A stretch of DNA of 64,000 bases from Candidatus Thiodiazotropha sp. (lineage in GTDB: Bacteria > Pseudomonadota > Gammaproteobacteria > Chromatiales > Chromatiaceae), in contig JBFNNX010000026.1 of assembly GCA_040791665.1 (NCBI GenBank), positions 49,435-113,434 of the forward strand, read 5' to 3'. The notes below the pieces were generated by a model that saw only the letters and a list, made by a program, of their open reading frames with translations, was not told the origin of the DNA and did not search any database. Position 1 is the stretch's first letter. Each line of letters starts with the position of its first letter. Position numbers and translations under genes: made by a program. Positions 26,497 to 35,341 of the stretch are shown here, piece by piece.

Positions 26497-26826
26497 TTAT
26501 TGGCTTTCTGCCGGAGCCGCCGGCGCAGCCGGAGCTGCCGGTGTGGCATAGGGATAGCCATAACCATAGGCAGGATAGCCATACCCATAACCGGGATAGC
26601 CATAACCATAACCGGGATAGCCATAGCCATAACCGGGATAGCCATAACCATAACCGGGATAGCCATAGCCATAGCCAGGATAGCCCCAAGGTCCATATCC
26701 AGGTCCATACCAGTCGTCATCATCAAACCAATCGAAAGGACCCCAGAATGCCTGAGCGGGTAGAGTAGTCAACAGAGCGGATCCGGCGATTGCAGCTACA
26801 GCAACAGTTTTTAAGGTTTTTTTCAT
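26497..26826 (-). CDS. Sulfur globule envelope protein (SgpA/B-like)
   Basis: Sec signal ending AQA-FWGPF, G/Y/P-rich body (GPWG, tandem GYGYGYP), and AP-rich tail, as in Chromatiaceae Sgp proteins. Confidence 0.8.
   Translation of the reverse strand: MKKTLKTVAVAAIAGSALLTTLPAQAFWGPFDWFDDDDWYGPGYGPWGYPGYGYGYPGYGYGYPGYGYGYPGYGYGYPGYGYGYPAYGYGYPYATPAAPAAPAAPAESQ
26552..26685 (-). repeat. Coding tandem repeat, 21-bp unit (GYGYGYP), about 6 copies
   Basis: Units such as CCATAACCGGGATAGCCATAA recur with synonymous variation. Confidence 0.85.
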
Positions 26827-26984
26827 GGCACAATGTCTCCTTCGTATCACTTTCTGATATTTCGTCAGGTGGTGAGTTACCACCCAGCCTCAACACCCAA
26901 TTTCTTATTGTGTCGGTTCATGGCCTGTTGTGGTGCTGTTCCTTGAACCTCTTAAATACTATATGCCAGTGAGAGTTTTTTTGC

Positions 26985-28574: not shown

Positions 28575-29013
28575 AGCGCGACACAAGCAACTATGCCTCT
28601 ATTCAATACTTAAGAAAAACAGTATGTTATGGACTTCAAGCAGTCAAACGAGCGATAAGAAGGGAATTATCCGCTTTGGGTAAAGGCGATAATCCGGATA
28701 GTCTTGATGAAACGCTGCCAGGTATATGAACTCTACAGCCGATTTGATTGTAATTTATTGAAATAAAAAGATAAAAACAGACAGGCATGCAGTTTTTTTC
28801 GCGGTGATTTATGATTTTTGTCACAAAACCAACCAAGAAAGGGAAAAAAGGTATATAATTATATCAGGAAATAATAATATATGACGCTAACATAGATAGA
28901 GAGGTTGTGGTCCAGAACTGATAATCATCGATTATTGAGAATTATCAGTGATTAATCAGGGATCGTTTGTCATTATATTATTAATGACTAATACGCGAGT
29001 AGTGAGGTGTATC

Positions 29014-29244
29014 ATGTCATTTCTGAACTGTAAACGTCTGCGTAGTGTAGTCACACTGGCCGGTGTGCTTCTCATCGGCGGTATGCTGCTTGAAGTGATT
29101 GCTCATTGGACGGCTTCGAACATGGTGCTCCTGATTCTCCAGCCGATCGCATTGGGAATGGTGCTGATCAGCCCGTTGGTGATGCTGATCGCAATGGCAC
29201 TCAGTCTGATTCCCGGTAAGAGTTTCAAGGATTGTATCCATTAA
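29014..29244 (+). CDS. Small two-TM membrane protein, unknown function
   Basis: RBS GAGGTG before ATG 29014; two hydrophobic segments. Confidence 0.55.
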   Translation: MSFLNCKRLRSVVTLAGVLLIGGMLLEVIAHWTASNMVLLILQPIALGMVLISPLVMLIAMALSLIPGKSFKDCIH

Positions 29245-29275: not shown

Positions 29276-29914
29276 CTATTCAGCCAACAGCTGTTGTGCG
29301 CTTCCGGTTTCCAAGCCGAACTCCTCCTCGACCATCTTCAGCCAGCGCTCCCTCTTGAAGGTCTTTTCATCCGGTACTTTTCTGTGTACCAGGTTGATAT
29401 GACAGTCGATGCAGCTTTTTCCTTTAGTCTCTTCGCGGTGTATGGAATTGGTGTCGGCACGTCTGCCTTGAATCGCTTCCAACACATGACATCGCTTGCA
29501 GGTGGCTGAGTCCCTCGCCTTGAACCATTTCCTGGCTTCAAAGGCGGCGTCTGGAAGATGCAGTGTGTTGATCACGGGATCGTCGTAATCCGGTCCAAAG
29601 AGCTTTCCCGAGATTTGGGTCAGGAGATCCTTCCCCCCCAGGAAGTGATCCCAGGTGGCGGCGAAAACGCCTTCGGAGACGTGACAGTCCCCGCAGGATG
29701 CGCGCACACCGGATATGGGTTTATAGTGTGTCGAGAGCCGGTAGGTTTCCGCCGCGATCTCCATGGAGTGACAAGTGGTGCAAAACGCTTCTGAACTGGT
29801 GAGCTCGTCAAATTCAATCAGAAACAGTAGAAATCCGATTCCGGCTATACCACCGATGACAAGTGCAACGAGTACCTGCCGATTTACGAAGTAGGGCAGT
29901 TTCCATTTACTCAT
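29276..29914 (-). CDS. NapC/NirT/cM552-family membrane tetraheme cytochrome c
   Basis: N-terminal TM; CTTCH, CGDCH, CKRCH, CIDCH. Confidence 0.9.
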   Translation of the reverse strand: MSKWKLPYFVNRQVLVALVIGGIAGIGFLLFLIEFDELTSSEAFCTTCHSMEIAAETYRLSTHYKPISGVRASCGDCHVSEGVFAATWDHFLGGKDLLTQISGKLFGPDYDDPVINTLHLPDAAFEARKWFKARDSATCKRCHVLEAIQGRRADTNSIHREETKGKSCIDCHINLVHRKVPDEKTFKRERWLKMVEEEFGLETGSAQQLLAE

Positions 29915-31361
29915 CGGCTTGCCTTTTTATATCGTAACCGAGGATCGGATTGGATTTCTGCGGCTGCTTCAGCCACTGATGAAGGTCGTTTGACGTTACA
30001 TATGCCTGGATCAGTTCACTGGCCTTCTCTGCACCGGCAATCTCTTCCAATTGTGGGAGGAATCGGGTGTAGAAGTTTCTTCCGACCAGGTACATACCCT
30101 CCCACCAGGTATGGTTGGCGCTGGCCATCGAAGCGCCATGGCGGGCACGTGCCCCCTCATCGTGCCATAACTCCCAATAGGTGAATTCGATCGGTTCGTC
30201 AAACGGGGTAGGTGTCAAAATGCCTTCGGAGTAGAGGGTTTGCATAATCTGTTTTGCCGGTATACCGAATTTCTCATTGAACAGTTTCACCACGTCGTCA
30301 AACTGCTCCATGAAGCTCTCTGTCAATGCCTTGCTGTGGCATTCCAGGCAAACCAGTTTCATCGCCTGGCGTCTACGCTTCGGTGATGCGACAGCCTTGA
30401 CCTTGCCCATGCTCCCGTCGGCCTTGCTGAGTTCACTGCCACGTCTCGGGGAAGTGTGAGATTCGGGAAGCTCGATTTTCTCACCGTCATCGAAAACCAC
30501 CAGCTGTTGTCTTATTGAAACCGGTGTGTTCAAGCTCCATGCATTGCGCATACCGACGTCGTGGTTTGCCTTCAATTTTCCGGCGGCGCCCATGTGGCAG
30601 GTTACACATGTGGGCGCGGCCACGTAGTCCTTGCCTGCGATCCAGCTGTCACTGTCCAGCGCCATTTCATCCCGGTGCGCTTCAAACTGCATACCATGCT
30701 TAGACGCTTCATATATCGCCTTGTCGGGTGAGTCGGGACCGGAGTGGCATCGGATGCAGGCGCTTGGCTCTCTGGCCTGGGCCTTGGAAAAACGGTGCTT
30801 GCCATGACAGGATGAGCAGGACCCCTTGGAACCATCGGGATTGATCCGCCCGATACCGGAATTGGGCCAGCTTCGCGGATCTAACGAGCCGTCGCCACGC
30901 ACCTCTACCTTGGAGCCATGACACTGGTTGCAGCCGGCAGCCACGATGGCATCGCCACCCACATGTCCCGCCAAGGCGGGTAGCCTGTTTTCAATGATGC
31001 TCACCGCTTCGGAGTGGACCGATCCTTTCTGCTGCTCATACTCGACAGTGTGGCAGCGGGAACAATCCAGGGGGGAGACGATGGTGGCGATAACCTGTCC
31101 TTCATGGGTAATCGCATCATTGTCGTCGACTGAGGCCTTGTGACAGTCAAGGCAGTTGACGCCCGCCTCGGCATGAGCGCTCTTGCGCCACTGCTTTGTT
31201 AAGCCGGATGAGCTCTTCTCATGGCAGCTGATGCACTCCTTGCCCAGGGGATCGCCCCATTCGCTCGGGTCTACGCTGACCTTGGCGGCAAACAGCTCCG
31301 GATTGCAGCAGAGAAGAGCACAGATCAGAAAGCGCCTCAGTAGGGATGGGTTCATTAACAA
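29907..31361 (-). CDS. Hydroxylamine oxidoreductase-like octaheme cytochrome c
   Basis: Eight CxxCH (CISCH, CLDCH, CSRCH, CNQCH, CSSCH, CIRCH, CVTCH, CLECH) with HAO-family motifs GIGRINPDGSKGSC, YEASKHG, APTCVTCH and WHDEGARARHG. Confidence 0.88.
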   Translation of the reverse strand: MLMNPSLLRRFLICALLCCNPELFAAKVSVDPSEWGDPLGKECISCHEKSSSGLTKQWRKSAHAEAGVNCLDCHKASVDDNDAITHEGQVIATIVSPLDCSRCHTVEYEQQKGSVHSEAVSIIENRLPALAGHVGGDAIVAAGCNQCHGSKVEVRGDGSLDPRSWPNSGIGRINPDGSKGSCSSCHGKHRFSKAQAREPSACIRCHSGPDSPDKAIYEASKHGMQFEAHRDEMALDSDSWIAGKDYVAAPTCVTCHMGAAGKLKANHDVGMRNAWSLNTPVSIRQQLVVFDDGEKIELPESHTSPRRGSELSKADGSMGKVKAVASPKRRRQAMKLVCLECHSKALTESFMEQFDDVVKLFNEKFGIPAKQIMQTLYSEGILTPTPFDEPIEFTYWELWHDEGARARHGASMASANHTWWEGMYLVGRNFYTRFLPQLEEIAGAEKASELIQAYVTSNDLHQWLKQPQKSNPILGYDIKRQADE

Positions 31362-31767
31362 TCTCCTTGAGCTGGAGTGTCAATTCTTACATCCGAGCCA
31401 GATACTGCCTGAGGCTTTTTCGTGATTATGAATTATGGATGACAGTCCAGCTGTTTTGTTATTTTTGGCACATGCCAAAGCTTGGCTTGTTTCGTAATCC
31501 TATCACGATGACTCGTCTTGCCAATGATATTTGTCATTCATAAATGGAAAACCACCAATTTCAAAAATAAAAAACAGCGGAAGACAGGATAAAACTACCA
31601 ATAAAATACAGGGTATTTACTAATCAACAATTTTAATCATCTGCGCTTAGTCAAAAACATTTCGGTTTTTTGTTTGGTATGTCCAGCATTGTGTGTATTA
31701 TTCCTAGTCGAGAAGAATAAGAAGTAATAATTCTCTCACCCACTAACAACAAATAAGGAGGGAAACC

Positions 31768-33063
31768 ATGGAAGCAGTCTCCGCTTCAAGGGCGTTTCAT
31801 GCAATAAGCTTTCTGTTTTCAGCATTGGTTCTGCTCATACTTCCCACAACTGCATTGGCCGGTGCAGACGAACCTATTCACCATGTCTCCTCGGAAGTCT
31901 GTAAAAATTGTCATAAAGAGATCTATAACCAGTGGAAAGGCTCGATGCATGCCCAGAGTACGGCATTGAAGGATCCAATTCATGCCACCTTCTACAAGAA
32001 GGTTGTAGGCAGTCCCGTGGAAGAGGGGGTCAAGCATAAAGCATCTGGCAAATATCCGGTCTGCTTGCAGTGTCATGCACCGAATGCGGCCGTTGACAAG
32101 ACAACCAAGCTCGATGCCAAACCTGCCTATGCGGAAGGGGTCAACTGCGTTGCCTGTCATACCCTGGCAAAATTCAAGGGAACAAGCGGCAAGAATGGCA
32201 AACTGCTGTTGGGACTCAAAGCCTATGAGCGTAAGAATGAACTGCAGGGACCTCAAGGTTTCAACCAGGGACTGACGAAACTGGTCGCGGCTGACGATAT
32301 GTTCGGCGGTGCAGCCAGTGATGAAGACTCGAAACCCAATCCCCATACTCAGGGAGAAGTTGAGCTGGACGGTAAGAAGATCCAGGCCCTGCCGATGGCT
32401 GGGAATCCAGTTTTAATGAAGACAAATGCTGCCTGCATGGGTTGTCATGACAAACGCAACAATCCACATGGCGTTCCACTTTGCCAGACAGGCAATGAGT
32501 ATGCGGGAAGCAATGTTAACTGCCAATCCTGTCATATGCCCGTCGCCGGGGGTATGGTGGATCACGGCATGGGCGGCGGTCATAATCATGCCATGCTAAA
32601 ACGCAGTGTCGTGTTCACCGTGGATGCAGTAAAGACGGGGGATAGCCTGAATGCCACTGTCAAGCTGAAGAACATGCAGCCGCACAGTCTTCCCACGGGC
32701 GCGCCTTTCAGAAACATCTATTTGAAACTCGCGGCCTACGACGCATCGGGCAATGTAGTTTGGCAAAACGCTGAAGGCCATCCCGCCAAAAGCGATTCCA
32801 AAGCCTATTTTGCCTACCTTTTGGCCGATGACAAGGGAGATCCGGCGATGCCTCCGACTGCAACCCAGCTCGGCGTCGATTCGCGTCTCAAACCCTATGA
32901 AGAGCGTATTCTGTCGTACAAAATTCCCGCCAAGGATGCGGTATTGGTAAGAGGAGAGCTCTTCTACAATCTGCTTTGGCCCGTTCTGGTAGAAAAATTC
33001 AAGCACCTACCGGAAGATTTGGTGGCGCCGGAGTCAATCGCTATAGCAGAGGTTAATCTCTAG
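31768..33063 (+). CDS. Exported pentaheme cytochrome c (c554-type domain plus C-terminal beta domain)
   Basis: Signal peptide; CKNCH, CLQCH, CVACH, CMGCH, CQSCH; W..S.HA and HSLPTG motifs. Confidence 0.8.
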   Translation: MEAVSASRAFHAISFLFSALVLLILPTTALAGADEPIHHVSSEVCKNCHKEIYNQWKGSMHAQSTALKDPIHATFYKKVVGSPVEEGVKHKASGKYPVCLQCHAPNAAVDKTTKLDAKPAYAEGVNCVACHTLAKFKGTSGKNGKLLLGLKAYERKNELQGPQGFNQGLTKLVAADDMFGGAASDEDSKPNPHTQGEVELDGKKIQALPMAGNPVLMKTNAACMGCHDKRNNPHGVPLCQTGNEYAGSNVNCQSCHMPVAGGMVDHGMGGGHNHAMLKRSVVFTVDAVKTGDSLNATVKLKNMQPHSLPTGAPFRNIYLKLAAYDASGNVVWQNAEGHPAKSDSKAYFAYLLADDKGDPAMPPTATQLGVDSRLKPYEERILSYKIPAKDAVLVRGELFYNLLWPVLVEKFKHLPEDLVAPESIAIAEVNL

Positions 33064-33074
33064 TCAAGCAAAGT

Positions 33075-33102
33075 CCTCACACCGGTGAGACCCGGTGTGA
33101 GG
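33075..33102. other. Intercistronic 11-bp stem-loop without U-tract
   Basis: CCTCACACCGG-TGAGAC-CCGGTGTGAGG. Confidence 0.6.
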
Positions 33103-33129
33103 CATCTAAAATCTGGTTCGGGGGGCGTT

Positions 33130-34734
33130 ATGTGCTCATTTAAGAGTTGTACACTACGTCTGGCCTCACTGTTGCAGTTCATCTTGTTTCTGATGTTTGC
33201 CATCAACCTGACGGCATCAGATGAGATAATCAGTTCAACGGCCGATCACACTAAGTTCGAATCGCTTCAACAGGCCTTCAGCACAGGTCCGGAAGTGACA
33301 AAAGCCTGTCTCGAGTGCCATACTGAAGCCGCTAGACAGATCCATAAAACCAAACATTGGAATTGGCAATTCACCCACCCCGATACCGGCGAGGAGCTGG
33401 GAAAACAGACAATTGTCAACAATTTCTGCGGTGCCATTGAGACCAATTATGCCCGCTGTACGAGTTGTCATGTCGGTTATGGATGGAAAGACAACAGCTT
33501 CGATTTCAGTTCTGAAACGAATGTCGATTGCCTTGTCTGTCACGACACAACAGGTACCTACAAAAAGTTTCCGACCGGGGCAGGACATCCCCCCTATGTG
33601 GATAAACCCTTCCCGCCCAAGAGCAAAAAGATCTGGAAAGCGCCGGATCTTGCTCATGTGGCCCAGCATGTCGGCAAGACTAGTCGAAAAACCTGTGGCG
33701 CCTGCCATTTTTATGGTGGTGGCGGTGATGGTGTCAAGCATGGTGATCTCGATTCGAGTATGACCGATCCAAGCAAATCGCTCGATGTCCATATGGGCAC
33801 GGATGGGCTGGATTTCGTCTGCAGTACCTGCCACCAGAAAGATGGGCACGATGTATCGGGCAGTCGATATACCACTCAGGCCAAGGATACACAGGGTATC
33901 GATGTGCCGGGTCGTGGCGATAATATCCGCTCGACCTGCGAGTCCTGCCACGGCCTCAAGCCTCATCCCGTCACGGTAAACAACAAACTGAACGATCACA
34001 TCAACAAGGTTGCCTGCACAACATGCCATATTCCAACCTATGCCAGGGGCGGCAAGCCGACCAAGACCTGGTGGGACTGGTCAACGGCAGGGCGTATGAG
34101 CAATGACGGTAAACACATCAAGACAAAAGATGACCAGGGCTATGTAAACTACGTCACCAAAAAAGGCTCTTTCGAATGGGGTGAAAACCTGAAACCGGAA
34201 TATGCTTGGTTTTCGGGCAATATTCGTTATAAGCAACTCGATGAAAAGATCGATCCCAACAAGGTCGTTGCAATCAATACCTTCGAAGGGAGTTATGATG
34301 ACCCTGATGCCAGGATCTGGCCATTTAAGGTGATGCGGGGCAAACAGCCCTATGACAAAGGCAACAACACCCTGGTAACGACCCATCTCTTCGGCAAGGA
34401 CAGTAATGCATATTGGAAGTCCTTTGATTGGAACAGGGCAATTAAAGCAGCCATGGATGCAGGTAATGCCGCATACAGCGGCGAATACGGTTTCATCGAA
34501 ACCACCTACCACTGGCCGTTGGCACATATGGTTGCCCCTGTAGACCAGGCGCTCGGCTGTGAAGCCTGTCATGCAAAGGATGGTCGGCTAAGTAAGCTCA
34601 CTGGTTTTTACATGCCCGCTCGGGACAGTTACTACTGGGTCGATCTGATCGGCTGGCTGGCGGTCTTGGGTACCGTGGGGGGTATTTCCATCCATGGCTT
34701 GGGTCGGCTCTTCTCGAAAGCCAAGCGGAGATAA
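33130..34734 (+). CDS. otr: Octaheme tetrathionate reductase (Otr) family cytochrome c
   Basis: TADH..F, eight CxxCH, NNFC...RCTSCH, GGGGDGVKHGDL, WDWSTAG, C-terminal TM. Confidence 0.88.
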   Translation: MCSFKSCTLRLASLLQFILFLMFAINLTASDEIISSTADHTKFESLQQAFSTGPEVTKACLECHTEAARQIHKTKHWNWQFTHPDTGEELGKQTIVNNFCGAIETNYARCTSCHVGYGWKDNSFDFSSETNVDCLVCHDTTGTYKKFPTGAGHPPYVDKPFPPKSKKIWKAPDLAHVAQHVGKTSRKTCGACHFYGGGGDGVKHGDLDSSMTDPSKSLDVHMGTDGLDFVCSTCHQKDGHDVSGSRYTTQAKDTQGIDVPGRGDNIRSTCESCHGLKPHPVTVNNKLNDHINKVACTTCHIPTYARGGKPTKTWWDWSTAGRMSNDGKHIKTKDDQGYVNYVTKKGSFEWGENLKPEYAWFSGNIRYKQLDEKIDPNKVVAINTFEGSYDDPDARIWPFKVMRGKQPYDKGNNTLVTTHLFGKDSNAYWKSFDWNRAIKAAMDAGNAAYSGEYGFIETTYHWPLAHMVAPVDQALGCEACHAKDGRLSKLTGFYMPARDSYYWVDLIGWLAVLGTVGGISIHGLGRLFSKAKRR

Positions 34735-34738
34735 ATCA

Positions 34739-35341
34739 ATGAGCCAAATCTATTATTTCTCACTCTTTGAACGCCTGTGGCATTGGTCTCAAGCGATACT
34801 GATATTCGGTATGCTGATAACCGGATTTGAAATCCACGGAACCTATCATTTGTTCGGCTTTGAACAGGCTATCGACCTGCATACGATCATGGCATGGGTA
34901 CTGATCGGCTTGTGGCTGCTCGCACTGTTTTGGCATACAACCACTGGGGAGTGGCGCCAGTATGTGCCGAGCGATCCTGACAGCATGCTGGCAATGGTCA
35001 AGTATTATGCAGTCGGTATCTTTCTCGGTGCGCCACATCCCTTCCACCGGAAACGCGCGGAAAAGCACAATCCGCTGCAGAGAATGGCTTATTTGATGCT
35101 AACAATGGTCATTTCACCGATTATCTGGATCAGTGGATTACTCTATCTTTTTTATCAATACTGGCCATCCATCGGACTGCAGGACGTGCAGCTTGGGTTG
35201 ATTGCTGTCGTGCACACAATCGGCGCATTCGCAATACTTTGCTTTATACCCATTCATCTCTATTTGGCTTTGACAACGGGAGAAAAGCCTTTTGGAAACC
35301 TGGTGGAGATGATAGTCGGGCATGAGGCCAAGGATGGTTGA
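34739..35341 (+). CDS. Cytochrome b subunit (PhsC / Ni-hydrogenase cytochrome b type)
   Basis: FERLWHWSQA, LHTIMAW, KHNPLQRMAY, VHTIGAF...IHLY; four TM with heme His residues. Confidence 0.85.
   Translation: MSQIYYFSLFERLWHWSQAILIFGMLITGFEIHGTYHLFGFEQAIDLHTIMAWVLIGLWLLALFWHTTTGEWRQYVPSDPDSMLAMVKYYAVGIFLGAPHPFHRKRAEKHNPLQRMAYLMLTMVISPIIWISGLLYLFYQYWPSIGLQDVQLGLIAVVHTIGAFAILCFIPIHLYLALTTGEKPFGNLVEMIVGHEAKDG

Follow-up and report, generated by a model that had tools for sequence, protein, structure and literature searches.

What does an octaheme cytochrome of the HAO family do in a sulfur-oxidizing clam symbiont, next to a NapC-like tetraheme and a pentaheme cytochrome? This question is raised by a locus of Candidatus Thiodiazotropha sp. 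(assembly GCA_040791665.1, contig JBFNNX010000026.1), of which a stretch of 64,000 nt (forward-strand positions 49,435-113,434, hereafter the window) was analyzed; its best protein matches were those of Ca. Thiodiazotropha, at 92-93% identity. A preceding interpretation of the same DNA, hereafter the sequence-only reading, had seen in the three genes a counterpart of the hydroxylamine-ubiquinone redox module (HURM) of ammonia oxidizers, possibly running in reverse.

Locus anatomy and the conserved three-gene unit

The window carried, on the minus strand, a gene for a NapC/NirT-type tetraheme (NrfH/cM552 family; 29276-29914, 212 aa, four CXXCH motifs) and a gene for an octaheme cytochrome c of the HAO family that lacks the cross-link Tyr (29907-31361, 484 aa, eight CXXCH motifs), the true start of which is likely the ATG at 31355. 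The two open reading frames overlap by exactly 8 bp (29907-29914), and a gene for a soluble pentaheme with a C-terminal Ig-like domain (31768-33063, plus strand, 431 aa, five CXXCH motifs) diverges from hao across a spacer of 406 bp; the overlap described in the sequence-only reading is exact, and the divergent orientation is confirmed. The plus strand continues with genes for an Otr-family octaheme (33085-34734, probable start ATG 33130) and a cytochrome b561/PhsC-like membrane subunit, the putative Otr partner (34694-35341, likely start 34739). A stable 11-bp hairpin (33075-33102, plus strand; -23.9 kcal/mol, z = -2.5, no clear U-run) lies after the stop codon of the pentaheme gene and ahead of the probable start of otr, and could be a partial terminator or an mRNA-stability element.

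A candidate hao promoter (31497-31536, minus strand) was recognized from a spacer alignment and a sigma-70-like pattern, with -35 and -10 elements at 31524-31497 and a TGA-N6-TCA box at 31525-31536, centered approximately 41 bp upstream of the predicted hao transcription start. Of 12 aligned Thiodiazotropha spacers, 11 retained the box, and a TGnTAGGAT-like -10 element was conserved too. An FNR-consensus scan of 65 divergent spacers gave no general enrichment of FNR boxes, because the mean best score (7.38) barely exceeded that of shuffled sequences (6.88). The box is thus conserved in Thiodiazotropha only, as a pattern resembling a putative CRP/FNR-type site.

As a unit the three genes are conserved, in an arrangement that is not due to chance. 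Among 251 sampled genomes of the order (112 with an HAO orthologue, 139 without), the pentaheme gene lay within 5 kb of hao for 107 of the 112 HAO orthologues; 94 of these 107 pairs were divergent and 13 were on the same strand, in the order penta-hao-napC. Among the best 80 genome loci, napC directly followed hao in 79. The three proteins are also inherited together, with distance matrices that correlate at r = 0.73-0.80. These results bear out the sequence-only reading in treating the three genes as one set. The outcome that it had named as refuting, a pentaheme travelling with otr instead, did not occur: the gene was found with hao-napC in 96% of cases, also where otr was not nearby.

Apart from otr and the cytochrome b gene, no further gene family was common to more than 14 of the 80 loci, in which the only conserved neighbors or regulators were housekeeping genes (LigA, carbonic anhydrase, SMC, ZipA, and PpiC). 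The otr gene is an optional add-on to the module: 33 of 55 window-type otr orthologues directly followed the pentaheme gene, 6 were within 8 kb, and 16 were elsewhere. Wherever one of the 80 loci had otr, it was accompanied by the cytochrome b gene. Carriers of the module span Thiodiazotropha, Sedimenticola, and purple sulfur bacteria, with Thiocapsa roseopersicina, Thiocystis, and Sedimenticola as culturable representatives.

Family membership of the cytochromes

The octaheme belongs to the HAO family, as had been proposed, based on PF13447 and hydrazine-dehydrogenase/HAO-type matches and on a PDB search that recovered every solved HAO-family enzyme. The best PDB match was 4QO5 (Ignicoccus IhOCC, E 9e-50), followed by Nitrosomonas HAO and anammox HAO-like proteins (E about 1e-21 to 1e-23) and hydrazine dehydrogenase (E 1e-16), and hhalign placed it with nitrifier HAO at a probability of 99.8%. 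Local HMM and hhalign alignments ended before the cross-link Tyr, and only a global profile-profile alignment covered the C-terminal region. In that alignment NHTWW---EGMY faced NPGGWTY467TEGWG of nitrifier HAO with a three-residue gap at T-Y467-T, a register of low confidence because the local alignments stop short of the region. The pocket residues D267/H268/Y334 of NeHAO correspond to D210/S211/N278, so that the Asp alone is kept, and these three residues were invariant or nearly so across 82 members of the HAO-like family. Such features fit an octaheme of the reductive type, and an HAO-like protein without the Tyr cross-link is therefore proposed to act as a reductase. In the accounts given by PMC2628731 and by Haase 2017 (via PMC10949509), Tyr-less HAOs were likewise proposed or reported to be nitrite reductases.

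A second HAO-like paralogue (48-50% identity) occurred in relatives and was absent from the Thiodiazotropha genome studied; coordinate comparison placed it no farther than 20 kb from napA in just 4 of the 38 listed cases. As a separate observation, the primer-derived C-terminus YGEQTDR of the orange Beggiatoa octaheme BOGUAY_0691 resembles the HAO-like family ending ILGYG..., and no protein matching BOGUAY_0691 was present among the matches listed.

The tetraheme matched PF03264 (NapC/NirT) at 117.3 bits against a cut-off of 24.1 and has a single N-terminal hydrophobic membrane helix and a first heme motif CTTCHSM. It was far below every cut-off of the NapC, NrfH, and TorC equivalogs of NCBIfam. 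Judged by its alignment to Nitrosomonas cM552 (34% identity over 168 aa, E 4e-26, hhalign probability 99.9%), it is a true cM552 homologue at the family level, in agreement with the earlier assignment, and presumably a HaoB-like quinol dehydrogenase.

The pentaheme had been called c554-type, and this designation has to be replaced. Its family profile matched PDB 5ZE8, the low-potential cytochrome c552 (LPC) of Thermochromatium tepidum, over the full length (profile positions 13-427, E 1.8e-218), and the protein was 61% identical, also over the full length, to the LPC gene product. By sequence it is an LPC/5ZE8 orthologue with five hemes and an Ig-like domain. In T. tepidum itself, the gene of the crystallized LPC stands divergently beside a hao-like gene. 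Orthology to c554 was rejected on the same 5ZE8 match together with the NCBIfam c554 equivalog NF043010 (19.7 bits against a cut-off of 400) and PDB c554 (1BVB, E = 5.9 with the pentaheme profile). Resemblance to c554 is confined to the N-terminal part with its three hemes: hhalign gave a probability of 95.5% at 24% identity, with the first three hemes co-linear. The sole match to the broad Pfam domain PF13435 was at residues 44-132, and PF13435 also matched the HAO-like and Otr proteins of the window; the sequence-only reading had itself cautioned that the c554-type domain family is broad.

An extra, non-CXXCH cysteine of the pentaheme, Cys239, was invariant in 73 of 73 family members and retained by 61 of 84 distant representatives. 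It is a candidate heme ligand of the His/Cys kind known from MccSep, a relative that reduces polysulfide. The AF2 model of the pentaheme had a mean pLDDT of 60, with values below 50 in the heme domain and confidence only in the beta-sandwich at 280-431; owing to this low pLDDT it was left out of the fold search, which the 5ZE8 sequence match made needless. According to PMC11976967 (citing Chen 2019), LPC is a major soluble cytochrome in phototrophically grown T. tepidum, and a sulfur role was suggested by the authors; in other accounts, the crystallized protein (5ZE8) is without an assigned function. Our literature search found no paper tying LPC to HAO-like genes, and with the present loci T. 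tepidum LPC gains a genomic context for the first time.

The Otr-family protein matched TIGR04315 at 635 bits (cut-off 375) and contained eight CXXCH motifs and a C-terminal hydrophobic segment. The cytochrome b matched PF01292 at 87.7 bits, and its best NCBIfam match, at 102 bits and below the cut-off, was the thiosulfate reductase cytochrome b subunit.

Possible function of the module

The host genome contained NapA and NirS. Profile searches of this genome for NrfA, NirB, and Hcp gave nothing above cut-off (NrfA: PF02335 below cut-off); Hcp (TIGR01703) had no match here and matches in five control genomes. The sequence-only reading had called the host a non-nitrifier, which agrees with the lack of a match to AMO (PF02461) in the genome, a result to be read with the equally silent control genomes. 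NapA was present in 83 of the 112 module genomes and in 74 of the 139 without the module (odds ratio 2.5), and 29 of the 112, T. tepidum included, carried the module without NapA. For many phototrophic module hosts we know of no nitrate respiration.

We propose, giving it an even chance, that the three genes encode a quinol-fed periplasmic N-oxide reductase module in which electrons would pass from the NapC-like protein to LPC and on to the HAO-like octaheme. The NapC-like membrane tetraheme would draw electrons from the quinol pool, and the LPC-type pentaheme would take the place of c554, to which it is not orthologous, as a soluble electron partner of low potential in the periplasm. The HAO-like octaheme, translationally coupled to the NapC-like protein, would work as a reductase and most likely form ammonium from nitrite, hydroxylamine, or NO at its heme 4, an N-oxide substrate that we infer from family membership. 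The module might be switched on at low oxygen. Since its gene also heads the otr-cytochrome b pair, the pentaheme is probably shared by two octaheme enzymes. Direct binding to the enzyme is usual for NrfH-type partners, and a soluble mediator may therefore be unneeded, which speaks against the three-part chain.

More tentatively, and with a probability that we place clearly below even, LPC may be the dedicated third part of a quinol-linked, Tyr-less HAO module in well over 100 species of sulfur-oxidizing Gammaproteobacteria, and may act with Otr-type octahemes as well. Its relation to c554 would then be one of analogy, with at most a distant kinship, and it may have a His/Cys heme tying N-oxide reduction to a low-potential or sulfur redox pool.

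A serious rival, to which we assign a low probability, is a module whose substrates are sulfur compounds (sulfite, polysulfide, thiosulfate, or tetrathionate) and not N-oxides. In that case the pentaheme, as a His/Cys-heme protein, would have either chemistry of its own or a redox role specific to sulfur, and the HAO-like octaheme would reduce or oxidize sulfur compounds. All carriers of the module are sulfur oxidizers, some of them without NapA as counted above, and the closest solved HAO relative comes from a sulfur-reducing archaeon, Ignicoccus. To our knowledge, however, all characterized HAO-family enzymes act on nitrogen compounds, and no sox, dsr, or other sulfur gene was a conserved neighbor in the 80 loci. 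His/Cys hemes are typical of sulfur-handling cytochromes, and the conservation of Cys239 agrees with such a role, as do the polysulfide-reducing relative MccSep with its His/Cys heme and the sulfur role suggested for LPC; against this, Cys239 is a putative counterpart of the MccSep ligand, and the selenocysteine site of MccSep is an Ala in the LPC family. The adjoining Otr belongs to a family that reduces tetrathionate (PMC6449678), which also favors sulfur chemistry.

Operation in the direction of the nitrifiers, with the octaheme oxidizing hydroxylamine (or hydrazine) and electrons passing through the pentaheme and the NapC-like protein to the quinone pool, is very improbable. The gene logic of an HAO-family enzyme, a multiheme carrier, and a cM552 homologue does parallel hao-cycA-cycB, and the orange Beggiatoa octaheme oxidizes hydroxylamine and hydrazine in vitro (PMC6449678). 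However, the octaheme has no cross-link Tyr (in the low-confidence alignment) and has lost the counterparts of pocket His268 and Tyr334, AMO had no match in the genome (with the controls silent too) and orf2 none in the window, and the low potential of LPC suits reduction. We know of no hydroxylamine source in the module organisms.

A functional tie of the pentaheme to the otr-cytochrome b pair only, with an incidental place beside hao, is scarcely credible and already contradicted by synteny: although the pentaheme gene is co-directional with otr and 22-66 bp upstream of it in the window, is the direct predecessor of most window-type otr orthologues, and outside the order has two LPC homologues that precede otr in stretches whose available flank (0.8-1.5 kb) contains no hao, roughly 55 of the 80 hao loci carry it without an otr gene within 10 kb, it still adjoins hao in the 16 cases with otr elsewhere, and in 13 genomes it comes first in a penta-hao-napC run.

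The N-oxide reading would have consequences beyond this genome. NrfA is lacking in symbionts of lucinid clams, Solemya, and tubeworms and in many purple sulfur bacteria, and the Riftia trophosome turns nitrite into ammonium (PMC6449678). The HAO-like/NapC/LPC module is a candidate for this nitrite-to-ammonium step or for the detoxification of hydroxylamine or NO, and either role, if true, would affect nitrogen retention versus loss in sulfidic sediments and symbioses.

Comparison with known systems

The nitrifier HURM (HAO, c554 CycA, and cM552 CycB; locus L082) shares with the module an HAO-family octaheme and a cM552 homologue. It differs in gene order and strands and in carrying the cross-link Tyr467 (N. 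europaea), absent from the HAO-like protein. Nitrifier c554 has 4 hemes in 211 aa, whereas the window pentaheme has 5 hemes in 431 aa and an Ig-like domain, and Nitrosomonas orf2, which lies between hao and cycA, had no matching protein in the window.

NrfHA follows the same logic, in that a multiheme nitrite reductase of the periplasm receives its electrons from a membrane quinol dehydrogenase of the NapC/NrfH type; its catalytic subunit is the pentaheme NrfA, whereas that of the module would be an HAO-type octaheme. IhOCC (4QO5) aligned in local segments alone (profile 33-60, 62-254, and 309-424), which include C-terminal helices; it is archaeal, from Ignicoccus hospitalis, with partner proteins that are different or not known. 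The enzyme reportedly has no cross-link and reduces nitrite and hydroxylamine, as Parey et al. are said to have found in 2016.

MccSep/ExtKL (PDB 9WT9; bioRxiv 10.1101/2025.11.18.688581) belongs to the pentaheme superfamily, with a five-heme cap and an Ig-like stem (E about 1e-11), and has a conserved Cys between hemes 4 and 5, as does the pentaheme. Its catalytic Sec325 corresponds to Ala312 in the LPC family, and MccSep is a polysulfide and selenite reductase with no link to HAO. T. tepidum LPC is like the window pentaheme in its five CXXCH motifs, Ig-like C-terminus, extra Cys, and divergence from a hao-like gene; the window additionally has otr and the cytochrome b gene downstream.

A close parallel by description is the reverse HURM or epsilon-Hao of Campylobacterota, a Tyr-less HAO octaheme with a NapC/NrfH/cM552-type tetraheme in organisms described in the sources cited as having neither ammonia oxidation nor NrfA, with quinol-dependent nitrite reduction as the proposed function. 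This arrangement, a Tyr-less Hao with a cM552-like protein, was proposed in 2009 for Nautilia profundicola (PMC2628731) in a scheme that needs a cytoplasmic Hcp to complete the reaction, whereas the Thiodiazotropha genome is without Hcp. Of the reverse-HURM idea in the sequence-only reading, the Tyr-less HAO beside a NapC-type tetraheme stands and its c554 does not; the idea itself is not new. The Thiodiazotropha module differs from epsilon-Hao by the gene overlap and by the conserved LPC pentaheme, and this conserved third component is new.

Gene organization of the locus

The module comprises genes for a NapC-like tetraheme (29276-29914, minus strand; 212 aa, four CXXCH motifs, one N-terminal hydrophobic helix), a HAO-like octaheme (29907-31361, minus strand; 484 aa, signal peptide, eight CXXCH), and a pentaheme (31768-33063, plus strand; 431 aa, signal peptide, five CXXCH and one further cysteine). 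The sequence-only reading had the first two genes overlapping by 8 bp and the third divergent, and both points are exact: the stop of the HAO-like gene overlaps the start of the NapC-like gene downstream by 8 bp, and a 406-bp spacer separates the octaheme and pentaheme genes. The identities it gave to the first two genes agreed with the family scans, in which the octaheme matched PF13447 and hydrazine-dehydrogenase/HAO-type models and the tetraheme matched PF03264 (NapC/NirT) at 117 bits. The closest protein matches, at 92-93% identity, belonged to Candidatus Thiodiazotropha, symbionts of lucinid clams.

Directly downstream of the pentaheme gene are genes for an eight-heme protein of the Otr family (33085-34734, plus strand; TIGR04315 at 635 bits, cut-off 375) and a cytochrome b561 (34694-35341, plus strand). 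Between the stop codon of the pentaheme gene and the probable start of otr, ATG 33130, which is preceded by GGGGGG, a perfect 11-bp, GC-rich hairpin (CCTCACACCGG...CCGGTGTGAGG; -23.9 kcal/mol, z -2.5) occupies 33075-33102. It could allow otr and the cytochrome b to be expressed separately from the pentaheme. The cytochrome b ORF as listed overlaps otr by 41 bp, and a start at ATG 34739 would place it 5 bp past the otr stop. In this copy of Otr, the C-terminus has a hydrophobic segment at residues about 518-540 and then KAKRR, suggestive of a membrane anchor. Of 251 genomes from the order, 183 carry Otr-family genes, frequently more than one; the genome containing the window has three, including one at G000:C23:93887-95365.

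The spacer between hao and the pentaheme gene contains a TGAYnnnnRTCAT box (TGA-N6-TCA; 31525-31536), which 11 of the 12 aligned spacers from Thiodiazotropha share, next to -35/-10 elements at 31524-31497, of which the -10 is conserved. The box lies about 41 bp upstream of the hao transcription start predicted from that -10, a geometry resembling that of class II CRP/FNR-type activators; as a lead, it is a candidate FNR/DNR-type site. A spacer scan across purple sulfur bacteria gave no enrichment of an FNR-type motif.

Additionally, a small hydrophobic ORF of 98 aa without a family match (28948-29244, plus strand) is convergent with napC and kept beside the module in Thiodiazotropha loci L001-L014 (53-91% identity) and missing from the other loci. 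The ORF at 26497-26883 (minus strand) encodes a signal peptide followed by a GYGYGYP repeat run, giving a Gly/Tyr/Pro protein of low complexity; because of this repeat, the reverse frames across the stretch are open as well.

The pentaheme and its family

The pentaheme had been read as c554-type, with the caveat that this domain family is broad. The caveat was justified: the Pfam Cytochrome_C554 model covers no more than residues 44-132 of the pentaheme, and it also hits the HAO-like and Otr proteins. The assignment itself was ruled out, with the c554 equivalog scoring 19.7 bits (cut-off 400) and the family profile matching the c554 structure (PDB 1BVB) at E = 5.9, against a match over its entire length to PDB 5ZE8, "cytochrome c552" (E 1.8e-218). 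What remains of the kinship is a weak co-linear likeness of the first three hemes (24% identity, hhalign probability 95.5%), which is a shared heme-packing motif and not orthology. The protein in 5ZE8 comes from Thermochromatium tepidum and is known as its low-potential pentaheme cytochrome (LPC; Chen et al. 2019); it combines a five-heme domain with an Ig-like domain. Two later sources (bioRxiv 10.1101/2023.11.21.568154; PMC11976967) leave its function unassigned or suggest a role in sulfur metabolism.

A role of the whole module in sulfur-compound metabolism is the main alternative to nitrogen-oxide reduction. All carriers are sulfur oxidizers, LPC is reportedly an abundant protein of T. tepidum under phototrophic growth, and a more distant relative of the pentaheme is MccSep/ExtKL (9WT9), a polysulfide-reducing selenoprotein. 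Outside the CXXCH motifs the pentaheme has a single cysteine, Cys239, in the motif G-V-x-L-C-x-T-G-x-E; 73 of 73 close family members share it, and 61 of 84 more distant representatives of the superfamily retain it. It lies between hemes 4 and 5, as does the MccSep cysteine that ligates the catalytic heme, and may ligate a His/Cys heme of the MccSep kind, the two cysteines being matched by position and not by direct alignment. The MccSep selenocysteine position is Ala312 in the pentaheme. We consider a sulfur role unlikely, though a serious competitor to the main reading.

The HAO-like and NapC-like proteins

The HAO-like family profile found its best solved-structure match in IhOCC, the octaheme cytochrome of Ignicoccus hospitalis (4QO5, E 9e-50), followed by Nitrosomonas HAO and anammox HAO-like structures (about 1e-21 to 1e-23) and hydrazine dehydrogenase (1e-16). 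With the canonical Nitrosomonas hao-orf2-cycA-cycB cluster on a metagenome contig (L082) as the comparison standard, the octaheme shared 22% identity with HAO over 436 residues, and the profile-profile probability to nitrifier HAO was 99.8%. Tyr467 of nitrifier HAO cross-links to heme P460. This residue falls about 60 residues beyond the end of the local alignment; in the global profile alignment, a low-confidence region here, NHTWW---EGMY lies opposite NPGGWTY467TEGWG, with a three-residue gap at T-Y-T and no aligned tyrosine. The distal-pocket residues Asp267/His268/Tyr334 correspond to D210/S211/N278, so that Asp alone is retained, and these are invariant or nearly so among 82 family members. 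As predicted from these alignments, the octaheme is a tyrosine-less relative of HAO. Loss of the cross-link is given as a mark of reducing, not oxidizing, HAO-family enzymes in PMC2628731 and in Haase et al. 2017 (via PMC10949509). A forward, nitrifier-like hydroxylamine-ubiquinone redox module (HURM) is very improbable: the tyrosine is missing, pocket residues have been lost, and neither orf2 nor AMO was found, although the AMO model matched none of the control genomes either.

The window's own genome has a single HAO-like copy. Most relatives carry a second HAO-like paralogue at 48-50% identity (G002:C7:119175-120473 and G006:C1:955898-957196 are two of many examples), which in close relatives is some 70 kb away from the module. 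By coordinate comparison, napA is no more than 20 kb away from it in 4 of the 38 cases listed; the octaheme of orange Beggiatoa is reportedly located near napA.

The NapC-like protein showed 34% identity to Nitrosomonas cM552 (E 4e-26; hhalign probability 99.9%), and from its sequence is identified as a true cM552/NapC relative. None of the NCBIfam equivalogs NapC, NrfH, and TorC came near its cut-off; therefore, it is a family member without a named orthologue.

Conserved linkage and proposed function

The co-occurrence of the three genes was borne out on two scales. Among the 80 best genome loci with an HAO orthologue, including Thiodiazotropha, Sedimenticola, a Solemya symbiont, Thiocapsa, Thiocystis, and Halochromatium, napC follows hao in 79 and the pentaheme gene adjoins hao in about 76, with otr and cytochrome b within 10 kb in only about 24; no further gene family was common to more than 14 of these loci. 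In an evenly drawn order-wide sample of 251 genomes, the pentaheme gene was within 5 kb of 107 of 112 HAO orthologues (divergent in 94, co-directional in a penta-hao-napC run in 13), and for at least three of the other five a contig end is about 300 bp away or less. Reciprocally, 107 of 113 pentaheme orthologues were beside hao. The T. tepidum genome encodes 5ZE8 at 100% identity, and its LPC gene is divergent from a hao orthologue, with about 350 bp between the two. Distance matrices computed for the three proteins correlated (r = 0.73-0.80), a pattern that fits co-inheritance but that shared species history would yield by itself as well.

That the pentaheme travels with otr instead, named beforehand as part of a finding that would overturn the HURM-like reading, was not what the genomes showed: of 55 window-type otr orthologues, 33 directly follow the pentaheme gene and 16 lie elsewhere, and in those 16 genomes the pentaheme gene is still beside hao, so that a pentaheme serving otr only is contradicted by synteny and scarcely credible. 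LPC homologues outside the order (44-59% identity) had no hao in the 0.8-1.5 kb of available flank, and two had otr next. Therefore, the LPC family appears to partner octaheme enzymes of either type, the fixed partner within the order being hao-napC.

In the 99%-complete genome from which the window comes, NapA and a NirS cluster are present, whereas the NrfA and NirB models gave no hit above their cut-offs and Hcp was not matched at all. Therefore, the HAO-like and Otr proteins are the only candidates found for nitrite reduction to ammonium, ferredoxin-type NirA being outside the search. Across the order, 83 of 112 genomes with the module have NapA, as do 74 of the 139 that lack the module, an odds ratio of 2.5 (p = 0.001, uncorrected for phylogeny); the 29 carriers without NapA include T. 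tepidum.

We infer, at roughly even confidence, that the module reduces nitrogen oxides to ammonium. The membrane NapC-like tetraheme would oxidize quinol. Its electrons would go straight to the periplasmic HAO-like octaheme, as happens in NrfHA, or pass through the soluble low-potential pentaheme as a putative shuttle, and nitrite, hydroxylamine, or NO would be reduced to ammonium at heme 4. This reading builds on the observed gene content, missing tyrosine, and linkage of the three genes; the course of the electrons, the shuttle, and the substrate are its inferred parts. The Nautilia two-step scheme, with free hydroxylamine and then Hcp, is not encoded in this genome.

A tyrosine-less HAO paired with a NapC-type protein corresponds to the known "reverse HURM"/epsilon-Hao idea (PMC2628731), and the LPC structure is likewise already known. 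A link of LPC to HAO-like genes was not found in the literature searched; here the two belong to a three-gene unit kept in 96% of carriers in more than 100 sampled species, among them T. tepidum, the source of the LPC crystals. With this linkage, a testable function can be proposed for LPC and also for HAO-like proteins from purple sulfur bacteria and chemosynthetic symbionts.
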